64,000 bases of DNA from an uncultured Gammaproteobacteria bacterium (GTDB lineage Bacteria; Patescibacteriota; Patescibacteriia; Magasanikbacterales; GWA2-37-8): NCBI GenBank assembly GCA_964482695.1, contig CAYZYP010000001.1, positions 4,143 to 68,142 of the forward strand, read 5' to 3'. This document shows, piece after piece, positions 10,639 through 17,393 of the stretch. Below the pieces are notes generated by a model. It ran no database searches. It had not been told where the DNA came from and was given only the letters and a program-made list of their open reading frames with translations. How positions within the stretch are numbered: the stretch's first letter is position 1; every line of letters starts with the position of its first letter. The position numbers and the translations under genes were made by a program.

Positions 10639-10668
10639 AAAACCGCTCTAAAAAGGGCGGTTTTTTAT
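10639..10668. terminator. Rho-independent terminator (aaccgctc taaaaa gggcgg + T6), between convergent genes
   Basis: GC hairpin followed by tttttt on + strand; reverse orientation also partly U-rich. Confidence 0.6.
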
Positions 10669-10670
10669 TT

Positions 10671-12638
10671 TCATTGGCACAAAGGAAAAGTACAAGTTAC
10701 TTTTGTGCCTTTGTTTATTTCACTTTCTATCTTTATATCCCCATCATGATTTTTTATGATTCTTTCACAGATTGCCAAACCAAGGCCGGTGCCCTTTACG
10801 CTATTGTTGGTGTTATTATCAGCTCGATAGAAGCGTTTAAATAAATTTTGTAATTCTATCTTGGCTATGCCAATTCCACTGTCATTTATTACAAGTAAAA
10901 CATTATTTTTATCTCTTTTTAAATTAATAATTATTTTTCTTTCATTGGCAGTATATTTAAAAGCATTGCTTACCAAATTGGTTATTAATTCTTCTAGCTG
11001 TTTTGCTTGGCCAAACAAATAAATGTTGGGTTCTATATTAGAAATAATGTTTATTTTATTTTGTTTAGCTATAACTTGGAAGTATTCTATCAAATCAGTT
11101 AGTAAATAACTAAAATTTATTTTTTGTTTATTATTAACATCAAATTTAAAATCTAACCTAGCTAATTTTAACAAATCAGAAATAAATTTCGAAATATTAT
11201 CTATTGATTTAGAGCATATTTTAAAAGTGTCATTTTTATTGTAACTATTTTCCAGTTGGCACAATTCGCCTTTGATTATTGTTAAAGGAGTTTGTAAGGC
11301 ATGAGAAATATCTAACATCATTTGTGATTGTTTTTCTTGTAAATTTGTTATTTCTTTAGTTCTATTTTTTACCTTTTCTTCCAAATTTTTGGAATAATTT
11401 TTTATTTGTTCATAAAGCCGCGCTTTTTCCAAAGCCATGGTTACTTGGTAAGCAAACGTTTCTAATAATTTTAAATCTTGTTTGCTATAATAGTCACCAG
11501 AAAGTTTTGGTCCTAATAATAAAAAACCAATATTTTTATTTTCTAATAAAAGAGGCACACTGGCGGTTTTCTCGTGCCTGTCATCTATTGAATGTTGGCT
11601 ATAAGTTGTATTTAAAATATAACTAGCTGTACTGGCATGGAGAATTTGTTTTAATTTATCGTTAGTTTCATCAATAATATCTTGTTGATTAATATTTTTG
11701 TTAGCGATAAAACTTAATTCACGCAAAGCCTCGCTATAATTGTATTTATCTTTGAAAAATATTTTATCAGTAAAACGACGAAAGTACAGTTCTATTATTG
11801 GTACGGTAAAAATACCAAAAATAGTAGTAATAATAGCGCTGATAAAATAATTAAAGTGGCTATTGTTTTTTAATAAAACAAGCGAAGTAAATAATATTGA
11901 TAAATAAAATATTATAATAATGCTTAAAATAGCAATATAAATTAAACCGCGTTGGATGATTATTTTGATGTCTAGCAATTTATGTTTTAAGATGACGTAG
12001 CTAGTGAAGATAGCCAAGAAGATAGAAAATTGCGGTCCAAGACTGTAGAATCGAATCTCTCCAAGTAAAGGTAAAATTACGGTAAAAATAATCGCTCCAA
12101 ATAATACCAAAAAAACTCCCATTTTTATGTAGATGATTTGTCTTTTTTGTAGCCACGATGCTTTTGGATAATAGAATAATAAGCGTGTGCCGCCATAAAT
12201 CAAACCGCCCAAAAGAAAAAGTAAAATAGGATAACTAACGATGCCGAGGGTGATTTGCGTGGGCGCATTAGGCGGAAAAAATGTTTCTATTGTATATAAT
12301 TTGGTGAAACTACAAATAGAAAAAATAATACTGGGCGTTAAAAAAAGTATCTTTTTTATTTTACTTAGTCGGTTGTTGATAAAAAATTCTATAAAACATA
12401 AATGATAACTAACAAAAAAGACACCGCCTGTAACAGCCAAACCGCTATAAATTCGCAAAGCCAGATCGCTACTCGCGACATCAGCCATGGCATTACTGCC
12501 AACCCAAACCGTGATGAATAAAATATATAGTCCAAGGTATTTAGCGAGAATGTTGTGTTTCTTTTGTATAAAAACGAAAGCCGCGACCCCCAGGTTTATT
12601 AAAGTGAGAATCGCGGCGGAAATAGTGAAAATAAACAT
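10671..12638 (-). CDS. Sensor histidine kinase with large multi-TM N-terminal sensor region; no response regulator gene adjacent in this window
   Basis: H-box ISHALQTPLT, HATPase_c motifs NLVSNAFKYT, DSGIGI, GTGLGLAI; ~9 N-terminal TM helices. Confidence 0.8.
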   Translation of the reverse strand: MFIFTISAAILTLINLGVAAFVFIQKKHNILAKYLGLYILFITVWVGSNAMADVASSDLALRIYSGLAVTGGVFFVSYHLCFIEFFINNRLSKIKKILFLTPSIIFSICSFTKLYTIETFFPPNAPTQITLGIVSYPILLFLLGGLIYGGTRLLFYYPKASWLQKRQIIYIKMGVFLVLFGAIIFTVILPLLGEIRFYSLGPQFSIFLAIFTSYVILKHKLLDIKIIIQRGLIYIAILSIIIIFYLSILFTSLVLLKNNSHFNYFISAIITTIFGIFTVPIIELYFRRFTDKIFFKDKYNYSEALRELSFIANKNINQQDIIDETNDKLKQILHASTASYILNTTYSQHSIDDRHEKTASVPLLLENKNIGFLLLGPKLSGDYYSKQDLKLLETFAYQVTMALEKARLYEQIKNYSKNLEEKVKNRTKEITNLQEKQSQMMLDISHALQTPLTIIKGELCQLENSYNKNDTFKICSKSIDNISKFISDLLKLARLDFKFDVNNKQKINFSYLLTDLIEYFQVIAKQNKINIISNIEPNIYLFGQAKQLEELITNLVSNAFKYTANERKIIINLKRDKNNVLLVINDSGIGIAKIELQNLFKRFYRADNNTNNSVKGTGLGLAICERIIKNHDGDIKIESEINKGTKVTCTFPLCQ

Positions 12639-12670: not shown

Positions 12671-13381
12671 TTAGGGGTGTTTACACCGCAAAAGAATACT
12701 AAAATCTCTGCTCTGAGGATCGTGGAGAAAATTGGGCAAGACGGCCAGGATTACTATATGCGGATTATGTAAATATTTGCGCAAAATAAGATCAGGTTCG
12801 GCTAAAGTCGGCAGGTTTGGCAGTTCAGGTTTAGCTGGCAATGTAGGAGCAGCGCATCCGTTTACCATTTTAACACATTCCCAAACATACGATAAGGCAA
12901 GCTGTTTTTCTTGTTCCGGCCTAAAGCCGCTTACCACGGCCTGATTAAAGTAGTCGGAAAATCCGGGGATCCGCGAAACGCCGTGTAGTGGCTTGTGGCG
13001 CGAGTAGGCAAAGTCAACGCAAGCTTGCAGAAGTACGTGTCCGCTGCCGCGATCTACCGAGCAGATAGTAATGCCGAAGTGGCAGTTACCGTTTGGGTCG
13101 TGGACGTGGCGAGAGAATCCGTTATCTGTTAAGTCGTTAAAGGTGGCCAGTCGCGAGATTCCAGCGGCAGTTAGATGGGTAATAAAACAGTAAGTGAAGG
13201 CGGTTATTACGCCATTTTTTTCTGCCAACAAAAATCCCTCGGGGTAAACGTCTAACCATGTTTTGAAGTGTTCCTCCCTATACACTTCAGTACCGGCGTT
13301 TCCCCAAACTTTTTCTTCTACCGCGACGATTTGGGCGATGTCAGCCCAAGTTGCTTGGCGAATTTTTAGTTTTTCTGTCAT
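12671..13381 (-). CDS. GNAT-family N-acetyltransferase-like protein with unusual Pro-rich C-terminal extension; GC-rich gene
   Basis: N-terminal IRQATWADIAQIVAVEEKVW... resembles GNAT fold; local GC clearly above window average. Confidence 0.45.
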   Translation of the reverse strand: MTEKLKIRQATWADIAQIVAVEEKVWGNAGTEVYREEHFKTWLDVYPEGFLLAEKNGVITAFTYCFITHLTAAGISRLATFNDLTDNGFSRHVHDPNGNCHFGITICSVDRGSGHVLLQACVDFAYSRHKPLHGVSRIPGFSDYFNQAVVSGFRPEQEKQLALSYVWECVKMVNGCAAPTLPAKPELPNLPTLAEPDLILRKYLHNPHIVILAVLPNFLHDPQSRDFSILLRCKHP

Positions 13382-13396
13382 CAGCTTCTCCTTGGT

Positions 13397-13795
13397 TTAC
13401 TCGTGCAGGTTATTAACCGGAAATTCAAGCCCACGTTCTATCACTTGCCAGACAATCTTTTTGGCAGAGAACTTGGCCTTGACGTACGCGACCACTTTTT
13501 CCGGATCAAAGTTCTGGCAGGAAAATAGATCCATGAAAAAGCAGTCTTTTTTGCAGTAGGTGTGGATGCTGATGTGAGAGGTGACAATTAGGATTATGCC
13601 ACTCGCGCCAGCGACTGCTGAATCATCAAAACTCGCCACCACCGGCTGGCTTGCTTTTTGCATGCCAACCAACTCCGGCAGTTCTTCTAGCACTTGTTGT
13701 AGTAAGTTGGTGTCGTTTAATTTGTCTGGATCTGCTTGGTAGCAGTCCATAACAAGGTGCAGACCGTAGTATTTATCTTTTTCTCCAATTTCCAT
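13397..13795 (-). CDS. speH: S-adenosylmethionine decarboxylase proenzyme, small class 1 (SpeH/SpeD-like); start taken at MEIGEKDKYYGLHLVMDCY
   Basis: GLHLVMDCYQADPDKLND...IILIVTSHISIHTY...FFMDLFSCQNFDP matches pyruvoyl-dependent AdoMetDC core (HISIHTWPE-like). Confidence 0.65.
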   Translation of the reverse strand: MEIGEKDKYYGLHLVMDCYQADPDKLNDTNLLQQVLEELPELVGMQKASQPVVASFDDSAVAGASGIILIVTSHISIHTYCKKDCFFMDLFSCQNFDPEKVVAYVKAKFSAKKIVWQVIERGLEFPVNNLHE

Positions 13796-13830
13796 GTTTA
13801 TCTCCTTAGGTTGTGAAAGAGCGTTGTTTT

Positions 13831-14487
13831 TTATTTTGTTATTAACGGCGCTAGGATAGTGTTGTGTTTCCAGTACAAACATTCTTTTGGCGGATTGACA
13901 TAACAGATTTTTTTATCAATTTTTTTAAATCCAGCTTGCTGTAAATAGTGCAGATGATTAGGTGAAAAATTATCAACTTCATCTGAATAGTAAGTTAAAA
14001 TTCCGTTTGGTTTTAAAATTCGGTACGCTTCTGGAAAGAATTTAAAATGATTGCAATGGATTTCTTTTTTTCGTAAAGGATAGGTGTCAAACAAAATGCC
14101 GTCTATGCTGTTACTAGGAATAGTTTTAATTGTATCTTCCCAAAAACCTAAGATCGGTTCAATAGAAAAATTAGTTTGTTTTTGAAAATCAAAAATAGTC
14201 TTCCAAACTTGTTTGTTGGCTTCTATTATAATATGCTTTGTTATCTGGCGCTTCTGAATATATTTAGCAGAAATACCCATGCCAAAACCAACTTCCAAAA
14301 TAGCCCCGCCATTTTTAGTGGCAATTTCTGCTAGTAGTTTCATGTAATTGTCTTCCCAGCTTTCCATTATCGGGTGGCCGCAAATTCGCAGTTTATCCCG
14401 CGTGATAAAAATAGGTGCGTCCAGCCATTTTTGTCTGATATTTTTAAAGCCGATTTGTAGGCGAGTTTGGTAGGTATTAATATACAT
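13831..14487 (-). CDS. Guanidinoacetate N-methyltransferase (GAMT)-like SAM-dependent methyltransferase
   Basis: RICGHPIMESWEDNYMKLLAEIATKNGGAILEVGFGMGISAKYIQ...GILFDTYPL...LKPNGILTYY...ILAPLITK closely parallels GAMT (RILGKPVMERWETPYM...GGRVLEVGFGMAIAASKVQ...MITPLVTKG). Confidence 0.65.
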   Translation of the reverse strand: MYINTYQTRLQIGFKNIRQKWLDAPIFITRDKLRICGHPIMESWEDNYMKLLAEIATKNGGAILEVGFGMGISAKYIQKRQITKHIIIEANKQVWKTIFDFQKQTNFSIEPILGFWEDTIKTIPSNSIDGILFDTYPLRKKEIHCNHFKFFPEAYRILKPNGILTYYSDEVDNFSPNHLHYLQQAGFKKIDKKICYVNPPKECLYWKHNTILAPLITK

Positions 14488-14575
14488 AGGTGATTGGTAA
14501 TAATATTATCGACATTCATAATAGCATATACCTACCTATGAAATTATAAATTAAAGATAAAATAAAAATAAACTA

Positions 14576-14601
14576 TGTCACGTTAGTGACATAGTTTAAA
14601 A
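14576..14601 (-). terminator. Hairpin aactatgtcac-gtta-gtgacatagtt followed by T-rich run on minus strand; second similar palindrome at 14641-14672
   Basis: Perfect 11-bp stem; downstream (minus sense) tatttttatttt. Confidence 0.4.
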
Positions 14602-14716
14602 TTACACAACATTTTTTTCCATCCGTTTTTTAGCTCCTTGCTATGTTTACAATTAGTTTGTAAACATAGTGGGAAGCGGATGGGGGAGTCCGCTTGAAGG
14701 TGTGAGTGTAGAGGAA

Positions 14717-14995
14717 CTAGTACCGAATGCCCCAGATTTGCGAGTTGTACCTATAGGCATCGTCGGAGTAGTAGACTGTTTTTTCGACCTTGGGCTTCCG
14801 CCCGTTACTCTTCTTCAAAGCGTCGAGGCCGTTGCCTTTTCCGATGACCGGTGCGTTCGGCACCTTCTCCGGATCCATGCCCTTTTGGAGCTGGTATAGG
14901 CAGCCTCCGATCCAGGCGAGCGTCTGGACGTCGACTCCGAGTTGTCGGGCGAACTTTCTTTTTGTTGTCTTTCTTCTTCGTACTGTGGCGTTCAT
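14717..14995 (-). CDS. Small basic protein (92 aa) with possible HTH segment, in GC-rich patch; strong SD
   Basis: aaggaggtg 5 nt upstream of ATG on minus strand; KFARQLGVDVQTLAWIGG weakly HTH/excisionase-like; GC ~55% vs AT-rich surroundings. Confidence 0.35.
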   Translation of the reverse strand: MNATVRRRKTTKRKFARQLGVDVQTLAWIGGCLYQLQKGMDPEKVPNAPVIGKGNGLDALKKSNGRKPKVEKTVYYSDDAYRYNSQIWGIRY

Positions 14996-15104
14996 ACGCC
15001 ACCTCCTTTATCTAGCCCGCTGTAGCACCACACCATGATCGGCGAGGTGCAAAAGCAGGTCGTGTAATCAAAAATAACAAAGATATATATATATGTCAAT
15101 AGAC

Positions 15105-15145
15105 AAAAACAAAAAAATAGGGGCAGGTTTAAAACCTGCCCCTAC
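15105..15145 (-). terminator. Rho-independent terminator downstream of rplS (ggggcagg-tttaaaa-cctgcccc + U-run on minus strand)
   Basis: Perfect 8-bp GC stem then tatttttttgttttt in minus sense. Confidence 0.55.
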
Positions 15146-15165
15146 GATTAGAAAATATTTGAATC

Positions 15166-15513
15166 TTATTTTTTTACTTCTTTTTTCTTTTCTTTCATTT
15201 TTCTTTTGAATTTTGGATCACGCAAATAATGTAATTTAGCCCTTCTTACTTTGTATTCTTTAACTATCTGGATTTTGGCTACAGCTGGCGAATGAATAGG
15301 ATAAATTTTTTCCACGCCAACACCATCAGAAACTTTGCGCACAGTAATAGTGGCGCCAGCTTCGGCCCCGTGTTTGGCGGCAATAATTGTGCCTTCGTAA
15401 ATTTGAATACGTTCTTTTTCTTCGCCTTTAGTGTTCATTTCTTTAATTTTTTCATGCACCTTTACCACCATGCCTGGTTTGTAGGCATTTTTTTTATTTT
15501 GTTCTTCGGTCAT
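15166..15513 (-). CDS. rplS: 50S ribosomal protein L19
   Basis: [27 protein letters not shown]...RRAKLHYLR. Confidence 0.85.
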
Positions 15514-16329: not shown

Positions 16330-17313
16330 TTAATGCAAGTTTTTTAGAAAGCTCTCTAATTCTAATGGTAGTTCTATGGTAAATTTTTTCTTTTCATTTT
16401 TTAAATTCACAAAACCTAATTGACAACAATGCAAAAATAGCCGCCCGCATTTTTCGTCCCACTTTCGTTTTTGTTTTTTTTGAAAATATAACGGATCGCC
16501 AACTATAGGGTGATTATACGCCAAAAAATGCGTGCGGATTTGGTGCATACGGCCGGTATAGATTTTAACGCGCAAAAGAGTAAAATTCACAAAACGTTTT
16601 TCAACCAAAAATTCTGTTTTAGCTTCACGGCCATCATCCGACGTCAGTCCATCTTTAAGGTAAGGAATAGCCGCCATCCGGTCGCTATTTTTTGTTCTTT
16701 TAATTGGAAAATTAATTTCATCCCAATCTTTATGTATTTTACCGTGAACCAAGACTAAATATTCTTTTTCTATTTCTCTTTTTTTGAATTGTTCTTTTAA
16801 ACACCCAAACATTTTTTGTGTTCGTGCTACTACCAAAAGACCAGACGCTTCCTTGTCTAGACGGTGAACAATGCCAGGGCGTGTTTCCGGATCATCGCCA
16901 ACTTTTTTAATTTCCGGATATTTCTTTGCCAAAACAGAAGCCACACTCATCGATTCGCGAGCCATGGTTGGGTGAGTAAGCAAGCCAGATGGTTTGTTTA
17001 TTACCAGATAATCGTCGGTTTCGGCGACAATGTTTAATTTAGAATATTTAGCAGAGTTGGCAGCCGGCTTGGGCTGTTTAATTGTTTTAGGTAATTTAGG
17101 TTTTTTGATTATCTTAGATAGTATAATTTTGTCGCCATCTTTTATTAAATTACCGGCTTTTTTAGGTTGTTTATCATTAATTGTTATTTGTTTATTATCT
17201 ATCATTTTTCGTACTTGCGAGCGAGAGACGCCTAATTTTTTTGTCAAAAAAATATCCAGCCGTTGATTGGCAAGTGGCGCGGAAACTGTAAATGTGGTCG
17301 TAAGAGAAGTCAT
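16330..17313 (-). CDS. RluA-family 23S rRNA pseudouridine synthase (RluD-like) with N-terminal S4 domain; start taken at MTSLTTTF
   Basis: S4 motif VSRSQVRKMIDNKQITIN, catalytic HRLDKEASGLLVVA. Confidence 0.75.
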   Translation of the reverse strand: MTSLTTTFTVSAPLANQRLDIFLTKKLGVSRSQVRKMIDNKQITINDKQPKKAGNLIKDGDKIILSKIIKKPKLPKTIKQPKPAANSAKYSKLNIVAETDDYLVINKPSGLLTHPTMARESMSVASVLAKKYPEIKKVGDDPETRPGIVHRLDKEASGLLVVARTQKMFGCLKEQFKKREIEKEYLVLVHGKIHKDWDEINFPIKRTKNSDRMAAIPYLKDGLTSDDGREAKTEFLVEKRFVNFTLLRVKIYTGRMHQIRTHFLAYNHPIVGDPLYFQKKQKRKWDEKCGRLFLHCCQLGFVNLKNEKKKFTIELPLELESFLKNLH

Positions 17314-17319
17314 ATATAG

Positions 17320-17393
17320 TGGGCATGGATGGACTCGAACCATCGACATCCACCTTATAAGGGTGGCGCTCTAACCAACTGAGCTACATGCCC
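17320..17393 (-). tRNA. tRNA-Ile with anticodon UAU (reads AUA)
   Basis: Manual fold of reverse complement: acceptor GGGCATG/CATGCCC, D-stem GCTC/GAGC, anticodon stem CCACC/GGTGG with loop CTTATAA, T-arm GATGG-TTCGAGT-CCATC, discriminator A; no encoded CCA. Confidence 0.7.

Follow-up and report, generated by a model that had tools for sequence, protein, structure and literature searches.

A conserved cassette of a GAMT-like methyltransferase, a SpeD homologue, a GNAT-fold protein and a histidine kinase: a predicted route to modified agmatine in Candidate Phyla Radiation bacteria

What does a bacterium make with a relative of the animal creatine enzyme that is encoded beside a homologue of S-adenosylmethionine decarboxylase (AdoMetDC) and a membrane histidine kinase? 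This question is raised by four minus-strand genes in the 64-kb stretch of DNA presented above (the window, to which all window-level counts and negatives apply; the remainder of the genome lies outside them). The genes follow each other head to tail with intergenic gaps of 15-35 nt between the open reading frames (ORFs) and encode a methyltransferase of 218 residues resembling guanidinoacetate N-methyltransferase (GAMT; 13831-14487), a pyruvoyl decarboxylase homologue of the SpeD family with 132 residues (13397-13795), a GNAT-fold protein of 236 residues (12671-13381) and a histidine kinase of 655 residues (10671-12638). An earlier note on this DNA had placed the first three minus-strand ORFs at these coordinates, where they are indeed found, and had described them as an islet. 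The three enzyme genes stand; the extent of the islet was drawn too narrowly, as the adjacent kinase, the wide conservation of the cassette and the existence of fusions had been missed.

In this study, we propose, with slightly more confidence than doubt, that the cassette pairs a guanidino methyltransferase with an amino-acid decarboxylase, and not an AdoMetDC with an aminopropyltransferase. Both a guanidino-compound pathway and a GAMT-fold aminopropyltransferase had been offered by the earlier note; the comparative evidence favours the former and speaks against the latter. With a GC content of 0.35 and closest homologues from Parcubacteria and Paceibacterota, the window resembles the Candidate Phyla Radiation (CPR). 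The public contigs that carry these genes stem from groundwater metagenomes.

The four cassette proteins

In a search of the PDB, the 218-residue methyltransferase matches human GAMT (3orh) with an E-value of 1.5e-40, residues 19-218 aligning with 18-235, and rat GAMT (1xcj) with 4e-38. Identity to animal GAMT is about 40%, and the protein carries a precomputed public-database tag for Pfam PF27704 (GuanidinoAc_N-MeTrfase). Since the next PDB family scores only 2e-4, the match reaches far beyond the generic motif for S-adenosylmethionine (SAM). The whole-length similarity to GAMT that had been claimed from the sequence thus holds and is not confined to the SAM-binding motif; the protein is not an ordinary spermidine synthase.

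For comparison, homologous proteins (P numbers) and homologous loci (L numbers) were gathered. A scan of one genome per species revealed methyltransferase relatives in 313 genomes, of which 80 loci were retrieved and compared. The window protein was aligned with the 80 prokaryotic homologues (81 sequences; an earlier set comprised 24), and residue numbers are those of rat GAMT, which coincide with the numbering of the window protein. Motif I and the acidic residue of strand 2 are kept: LEVGFGMGISA and IIIE89AN of the window protein align with LEVGFGMAIAA and IIE89CN of the rat enzyme, and neither motif I (LEVGFGMG) nor Glu89 is lost in any of the 81 sequences. Glu45, which is said to have been described by Komoto in 2004 as guanidino-binding in rat GAMT, and Asp134-Thr135 are invariant in 24 of 24 sequences of the earlier set, and the aligned segments retain both in 81 of 81. 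Asp134 deprotonates the guanidino nitrogen in the course of methyl transfer (PMC12471008, PMC12842229). Thirteen residues (rat C168-K180) are missing from the window protein as well as from each of the 80 prokaryotic homologues; the deletion is followed by a Y-S-D-E motif that is invariant (81/81), and no conserved basic residue was identified as a replacement for the deleted loop. In the rat enzyme, again reportedly according to Komoto in 2004, the backbone amides of L170 and T171 hold the guanidinoacetate carboxylate. The residue pattern over the 81 sequences indicates that the SAM and guanidino machinery has been kept and that the carboxylate-binding element has been exchanged for acidic side chains. 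The preferred substrate of the methyltransferase is probably a guanidino compound whose tail is cationic, e.g., agmatine. The substrate-binding residues that the earlier note had singled out for inspection are thus divided, the SAM motif, Glu45 and Asp134 agreeing with GAMT and those of the carboxylate loop being absent.

The SpeD homologue was listed as an ORF of 161 residues (13397-13882). We take the ATG at 13795 as its start codon, as do three of four public gene calls, and a ribosome-binding site precedes it; an AAGGAG site is located 5' of the start codons of both the SpeD-like and the GNAT-like gene. Since the start sits at 13795, the 52-nt overlap with the methyltransferase gene is an artefact of ORF listing. 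The 161-residue ORF matches Pfam AdoMet_dc (PF02675) with an E-value of 6e-26, and the best PDB matches among AdoMetDCs reach just 1e-11. The pyruvoyl Ser, the His and the Cys align with S63, H68 and C83 of T. maritima. The cleavage site had been reported as TSHIS, and the window indeed reads VTSHISIHTY; the full motif is T-S-H-I-S-I-H-T-Y-C-K compared to E-S-H-x-x-I-H-T-W-P-E in true AdoMetDCs. According to this alignment, the Glu before the pyruvoyl Ser has become Thr, and the Glu at His+4 has become Lys. In AdoMetDC the former contacts the adenine and the latter binds both ribose hydroxyls (PMC1282579). A Pro that is invariant among true AdoMetDCs, though not among the arginine decarboxylases of the SpeDA type (PMC10407285), is replaced by Cys in the window, where its mapping to the P of HTWPE is our own assignment; orthologues have S, E, A, C or P at this position. 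The motif of the cassette orthologues can be written as [E/T]-SHIS-x-H-[T/S]-Y-x-x, where the final residue is K, N, L, A, S or E, and the T-S variant is common to L005, L023, L024, L086 and L087.

The window protein thus departs from AdoMetDC at all three diagnostic residues and seems to fit the published description of arginine-decarboxylase derivatives. It is predicted to decarboxylate arginine or another basic amino acid, and not SAM. Of the earlier label, a pyruvoyl-type SAM decarboxylase, the SpeD family and the pyruvoyl Ser, His and Cys remain, whereas the two SAM-binding Glu residues and the Pro do not. The neofunctionalised SpeDA and SpeDC enzymes (Li, Liang, Phillips & Michael, JBC 2023, PMC10407285) share with it the class-1b SpeD fold, the retained Ser, His and Cys, the loss of the AdoMetDC Pro, the occurrence in CPR and DPANN and the lack of a speE partner. 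Unlike SpeDC, the window protein has no Gln/Thr/Phe/Tyr signature, of which only the Thr before the Ser matches, with the positions read from one printed sequence of an ornithine decarboxylase (ODC) domain (Fig. S5); SHISIHTY in the window stands against SLISGHFAN in the ODC domain of D. phosphitoxidans, and the remaining motif is AdoMetDC/SpeDA-like. The known SpeDA and SpeDC genes cluster with agmatinase, SpeY, HSS or SpeE, whereas the window gene clusters with a GAMT-family methyltransferase, a partner of SpeD homologues that is unmentioned in PMC10407285. The spermidine-synthase motif GGG[DE]G occurs neither in any frame of the window, in agreement with the earlier claim that a spermidine synthase gene is missing there, nor in about 2000 ORFs around 160 related loci.

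A further large class of SpeD proteins was encountered among L101-L164 (e.g., L104, L114, L118, L120, L121 and L138). It is featured by the motif ESHISIHTFP[K/A/N], which retains the Pro but not the ribose-binding Glu, and its genes lie mostly away from GAMT-like genes. This class is repeatedly syntenic with putative rnhB, rpmF, an ABC-2-type permease and a GT39/ArnT-like membrane protein of 620-710 residues, as labelled by reading the sequences.

No match to the 236-residue protein was obtained in Pfam, NCBIfam or PDB sequence searches. An AlphaFold (AF2) model, built on an alignment of eight sequences (pLDDT 89.5, pTM 0.85), has a GNAT fold: Foldseek returned 151 PDB matches at E<=1e-3, and the 50 matches listed are all GNAT or GNAT-like. 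The earlier label of a GNAT acetyltransferase is thus borne out by the fold and has no counterpart in sequence matches. CurA, GphF and SxtA provide the best structural matches with their GNAT-like decarboxylase/loading domains (6e-10 to 8e-9); ordinary N-acetyltransferases come next. With these domains (2ref, 6mfc, 7uci) the cassette protein shares a GNAT core and a C-terminal extension, at a query-normalised TM of 0.60-0.66; it differs from them by the absence of detectable sequence similarity, by being a standalone protein and by the lack of an acyl carrier protein or polyketide synthase (PKS) gene in the cassette. GNAT enzymes bind pyrophosphate through a Q/R-x-x-G-x-G/A motif; the cassette protein has a P-loop-like R-G-S-G-H-V (R-G-x-G) with the nearly invariant G112 and G114, and R8, D14, E22, W42, R137 and D197 are invariant in the family. 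Ordinary sequence searches retrieved two and then seven homologues, and an exhaustive profile search 838 representatives at E<1e-3. The distant relative P0247 matches Pfam Acetyltransf_1 over the same region. Based on the model, the protein is predicted to use acyl-CoA and may be an N-acyltransferase or a decarboxylase of the malonyl type. Among the distant relatives, P0258 and P0264 carry an N-terminally fused PilZ (c-di-GMP-binding) domain, and P0247 combines the GNAT-like domain with an amidohydrolase.

Judged by hydropathy, the first 285 residues of the kinase hold about eight to nine transmembrane segments joined by short loops; a weak GAF match and HisKA and HATPase_c domains (Pfam) follow. 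Kinases that detect ligands or stress inside the membrane are built in this way. Full-length orthologues (34-46% identity, E-values down to 0) directly follow the GNAT-like gene in 15 species loci. An OmpR-type regulator (Response_reg and Trans_reg_C) is located upstream at 16 of the 80 related loci; by tblastn, no response regulator was found in the 64-kb window.

Gene order, fusions and alternative partners

Relatives of the methyltransferase occur in many CPR classes, DPANN archaea, Gemmatimonadota, Xanthomonadales, Desulfobacterales and a few actinomycetes. The collinear order of methyltransferase, SpeD-like, GNAT-like and kinase genes was detected by tblastn at 15 of the 80 species loci, spread over many CPR classes, and again on the metagenome contigs L085-L094 and L160. 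In 13 of these 15 loci an OmpR-type regulator lies directly upstream and in two no regulator was found. Because the upstream regulator and the downstream kinase recur, the three enzymes are embedded in a two-component operon. The genes that flank the cassette in the window, rplS, gmk and uvrC, adjoin no other copy, and since the flanking genes differ between loci, the cassette order is kept without surrounding synteny. In addition, the methyltransferase and the SpeD-like protein are fused in P0090, P0097 and P0114.

Several of the metagenome-assembled genomes (MAGs) that hold a CPR-type cassette, at 50-60% identity to the window proteins, are titled 'uncultured Gammaproteobacteria' or 'uncultured Bdellovibrionales' (L002, L005, L014, L022, L034, L041, L050 and others). 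The largest such records are L005 (1.23 Mb, labelled chromosome) and L002 (1.34 Mb, a contig), and the record names look unreliable.

The rest of the 80 loci are arranged differently. Regulator, methyltransferase, SpeD-like and kinase genes without a GNAT-like gene were found at two loci, regulator, methyltransferase and kinase at one (L007), and methyltransferase and SpeD-like gene only at one. The methyltransferase is combined with a PurD-like ATP-grasp enzyme and a kinase at ten loci, adjoins a decarboxylase dependent on pyridoxal phosphate (PLP) at 14, lies near an amidinotransferase at four (L026, L027, L039 and L071), is accompanied by a kinase only at four and has none of these partners at 29. 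In total, no SpeD-like gene is found directly downstream of the methyltransferase at 58 of the 80 loci.

The replacements are informative on the substrate. The PLP decarboxylase, found mostly in loci labelled Saccharibacteria, has an alanine-racemase fold and most resembles the Lys/Orn decarboxylase 5gjm (8e-49), ODCs and an arginine decarboxylase of viral origin; in 6 of the 14 loci it is adjoined by an EamA transporter. The amidinotransferase of the four loci is close to SxtG (9e-112), HsvA and AGAT and is set in a PKS cluster at one locus and beside a LysE-type exporter at two, and none of the four is of the CPR cassette type. In the ten ATP-grasp loci an EamA transporter is usually located upstream, and at L050 a SpeD-like gene lies between the EamA and ATP-grasp genes. 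At L069 a DUF2156/LPG_synthase_C protein occupies the GNAT-like position. The third enzyme thus varies, yet to judge from its family it is always of an amide-forming type, be it GNAT-fold, ATP-grasp or DUF2156/LPG_synthase_C. We know of no AdoMetDC analogue with an alanine-racemase fold. Because two unrelated decarboxylases for basic amino acids, or else an amidinotransferase, adjoin the methyltransferase, a guanidino-amine substrate fits and a supply of decarboxylated SAM (dcSAM) does not. The same reasoning has been applied by the Michael laboratory to the agmatine-dependent SpeY pathway, in which arginine decarboxylases of different folds replace each other (PMC13625781).

Some of the compared loci deserve mention for their own sake. 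At L027 (3266-12705, a Desulfamplus MAG), the GAMT-like gene lies between a 1538-residue PKS and the SxtG-like amidinotransferase, with an acyl-CoA-synthetase-like gene downstream; this locus looks like a natural-product cluster for an N-methylguanidino polyketide. L026 (7482-11168) and L039 (7308-11164) combine a small GNAT, the GAMT-like gene, an SDR, a LysE-type exporter and the amidinotransferase. The PKS, acyl-CoA-synthetase, small-GNAT and LysE labels at these three loci were assigned by inspection of the sequences. Furthermore, an unannotated pair, consisting of a membrane protein of about 270 residues and a protein of about 95 residues starting with MxTVTLSQIA, recurs together with a histidine kinase. 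This trio was seen beside the GAMT-like gene at L036, L042, L045, L051, L064 and L066 (mostly labelled Saccharibacteria) and beside a SpeD-like and a DUF2156 gene at L146, L147 and L159, and may represent a further module of the cassette system.

The predicted pathway and its alternatives

The observed homologies, residue patterns, gene order, fusions and alternative partners can be joined into one scheme. The SpeD homologue would have been neofunctionalised to decarboxylate an amino acid and, most likely, would convert arginine to agmatine as SpeDA enzymes do. The GAMT-like enzyme would then methylate a guanidino nitrogen of agmatine at the expense of SAM, namely the chain-proximal one if GAMT and Rmt2 are taken as models. 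The GNAT-fold enzyme would modify the free primary amine in an acyl-CoA-dependent reaction, and the product or a precursor would be linked to the operon kinase, either as its sensed input or as its controlled output. The identity of the substrates and of the acyl donor, the regiochemistry, any role of the kinase and the sequence of the first two steps are all inferred, and arginine could be methylated first. Taken as a whole, from arginine over agmatine and guanidino N-methylation to acylation under two-component control, the scheme is one that we would credit and doubt in equal measure.

Several observations weigh against this scheme. TIGR03330 accepts the 161-residue SpeD ORF, albeit narrowly (76.7 bits compared to a cutoff of 75.65). 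The Glu at His+4 is retained in the SpeD-like proteins of L008-L010, L017 and L018, and the Glu before the Ser in most SpeD-like proteins of the cassette. By the account of the authors who described them, SpeDA arginine decarboxylases are not easily distinguished from AdoMetDCs on the basis of sequence (PMC10407285). The argument from the carboxylate loop draws on what is reported of the rat structure and on a sequence alignment instead of on coordinates. At the 29 partnerless loci, and at L007 with its regulator and kinase only, the methyltransferase has no decarboxylase at its side, and because of these loci it can apparently work without a dedicated one. In Saccharibacteria the decarboxylase gene is convergent with the methyltransferase gene and not co-directional, and lineage synteny could explain part of this association. 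In structure, the GNAT-fold protein is nearest to malonyl decarboxylase domains and not to N-acyltransferases. Finally, the enzyme activities of all cassette members are predictions from sequence.

The first two steps may also run in the reverse order, which we hold to be unlikely, though not negligibly so: L-arginine would be guanidino-methylated first, N-methylarginine decarboxylated to N-methylagmatine, and the latter acylated. The methyltransferase does come first in both gene and fusion order, its acidic YSDE could bind the alpha-ammonium group of arginine, and the N-methylagmatine units of saskemycin, attributed to a SznE-like enzyme, have been proposed to originate from methylarginine, via a different methyltransferase family (PMC12637814). 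Gene order is, however, a weak guide to reaction order, and an enzyme that has lost its carboxylate-binding loop, with no conserved basic replacement identified, is poorly suited to arginine. Quite improbable, in our estimate, is a genuine SAM decarboxylase that feeds dcSAM to a GAMT-fold aminopropyltransferase in place of the missing spermidine synthase. Pfam and TIGR03330 assign AdoMetDC, the Ser, His and Cys are intact, and no speE motif is present in the window or the 160 loci; moreover, SpeD-family genes that adjoin, and are sometimes fused to, a Rossmann-fold SAM-utilising transferase have a precedent in SpeD-SpeE, fusions of which were reportedly described by Green et al. in 2011. The cassette departs from this precedent, as its transferase belongs to the GAMT family, with motif I and the other GAMT motifs unchanged and no dcSAM-selecting acidic residue of the GGGDG type, and as its SpeD homologue has lost both SAM-contacting Glu residues and the AdoMetDC Pro, positions that vary across the cassette family. 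The 58 loci without a directly downstream SpeD-like gene and the replacement of this gene by non-homologous PLP decarboxylases or amidinotransferases in other lineages argue in the same direction, and the aminopropyltransferase of the earlier note is left unsupported.

Two further alternatives keep closer to known GAMT-fold enzymes. The catalytic domain of yeast Rmt2 is GAMT-like, and the methyltransferase could be a protein arginine (delta-nitrogen) methyltransferase of this type that acts on the kinase, the regulator or a ribosomal protein, with the other enzymes of the cassette being separate. The deletion of the carboxylate loop should open the pocket, and the methyltransferase-kinase pair is the most persistent of all, present at 32 of the 80 loci and joined only by the regulator at L007. 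We nevertheless consider this very improbable, as the fusion to a decarboxylase and the neighbouring amidinotransferases, decarboxylases, ATP-grasp enzymes and exporters point to a small-molecule pathway and no target protein is indicated. An ordinary bacterial GAMT that converts guanidinoacetate to creatine, as the JGI annotations of the homologues say, seems extremely improbable to us. With the AGAT-GAMT creatine pathway (EC 2.1.1.2; 3orh, 1xcj) the methyltransferase has in common the fold, the family with its Pfam GAMT tag, the whole-length identity of about 40%, motif I, Glu89, Glu45 and Asp134-Thr135, and at L026, L027, L039 and L071 its homologues adjoin an AGAT/SxtG-type amidinotransferase. 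It lacks, however, the 13-residue carboxylate loop in 81 of 81 sequences and has the invariant YSDE instead; no amidinotransferase was found by tblastn in the window, and the partner in the CPR cassette is a decarboxylase and not AGAT, in an operon that adds a GNAT-fold enzyme and a two-component system.

Composition, surroundings and possible role of the cassette

The cassette of the window is a mosaic in base composition. The GNAT-like gene (GC 0.474) and the SpeD-like gene (0.454, with a GC of 0.53 at third codon positions, GC3) have the two highest values among the 59 ORFs of the window (mean 0.353, standard deviation 0.040), and a GC-rich block (12700-13800; 0.44-0.55) spans exactly these two genes within a surrounding cassette of 0.30-0.34. 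The methyltransferase (0.339) and kinase (0.296) genes are typical of the genome. The GC-rich GNAT gene had already been noticed in the earlier note; the SpeD-like gene, which equally belongs to the block, had been overlooked. L005, whose SpeD-like protein and kinase are the closest orthologues among the retrieved loci, shows the same mosaic, and most other cassettes are compositionally uniform. The simplest explanation is that the SpeD-like and GNAT-like genes of an existing cassette were exchanged for those of a GC-richer relative. L023 and L024, which encode SpeD-like proteins of the T-S type in genomes of about 50% GC, were considered as donors of the block and set aside, as they are not clearly closer than other orthologues.

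The four-gene unit is probably closed by a bidirectional terminator, a hairpin with flanking A/T runs at 10639-10664, just 3' of the kinase stop codon. A consensus scan calls this hairpin on the plus strand only, and termination on the minus strand is probable in view of the flanking A/T runs. A second hairpin is located 5' of the unit at 14598-14569. A search with Rfam over 14450-15200 for a structured RNA or a remnant of a regulator gave terminator-like hairpins only. The possibility that the cassette is a defence system or a prophage islet was discarded, since no supporting hits were obtained and many genomes keep the cassette without mobile-element genes; PHROGs and PADLOC searches with the cassette proteins returned only generic methyltransferase or kinase similarity, and no phage or defence assignment.

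Upstream of the cassette, the slot that holds the response regulator in other copies is occupied by an ORF of 92 residues (14717-14995, minus strand) with a GC of 0.54 and a GC3 of 0.70, compared to 0.35 for the genome; its flanks extend over 14560-15145. It has an AGGAGG ribosome-binding site, a promoter-like TTGACA-17-TATTTT at 15099-15071 and terminator hairpins on either side. Neither Pfam nor PADLOC gave a match to it, PHROGs gave a marginal one (E 0.0098), no homologue was found among 160 related loci, and public gene callers leave it uncalled. Possibly a small gene of foreign origin has here taken the place of the regulator. Further upstream, the longest ORF for an RluD-like pseudouridine synthase (16330-17349) runs at its 5' end into a tRNA gene (17320-17393, minus strand; Rfam, 77.6 bits), and because of this overlap the true start of the RluD-like gene must lie further downstream.

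The linkage of biosynthetic enzymes with a two-component system invites a comparison to known signalling operons. In agrBDCA, comQXPA and cqsA-cqsS, biosynthetic enzymes, a multi-pass kinase without a large external domain and a regulator are likewise combined in one operon. The likeness is one of architecture only: no proteins are homologous, and the cassette is known from its genes alone. In a speculative reading, which we regard as rather unlikely, the cassette would be a self-contained small-molecule signalling module of the CPR that makes an N-methyl, N-acyl agmatine-type autoinducer from arginine, SAM and acyl-CoA. The kinase, having no external domain, might then sense this autoinducer in the membrane, and the OmpR-type regulator might feed back on the operon; to both we give equally little weight. 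Just as speculatively, the variant cassettes with ATP-grasp or DUF2156 proteins, PLP decarboxylases or EamA exporters could be dialects of one system. We know of no endogenous signal in the CPR, a point on which no literature search was made. Our literature search on the cassette itself yielded no paper that describes it, its fusions or a GAMT-like partner of SpeD homologues.

In summary, known enzyme families appear here in a new, conserved combination, which predicts a metabolite that is undescribed in these organisms. If the proposed pathway is correct, a guanidino-N-methylated and acylated agmatine would constitute a new branch of arginine and polyamine metabolism, built on the prokaryotic sister clade of the animal creatine enzyme, a clade that is present in at least 313 species-level genomes. 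The neofunctionalised SpeD decarboxylases would gain a new kind of partner, and the finding would bear on the origin of animal GAMT. The pathway would moreover be wired to one of the few two-component systems kept by CPR bacteria and would thus offer these reduced, host-dependent cells a candidate route to sense or condition their surroundings.

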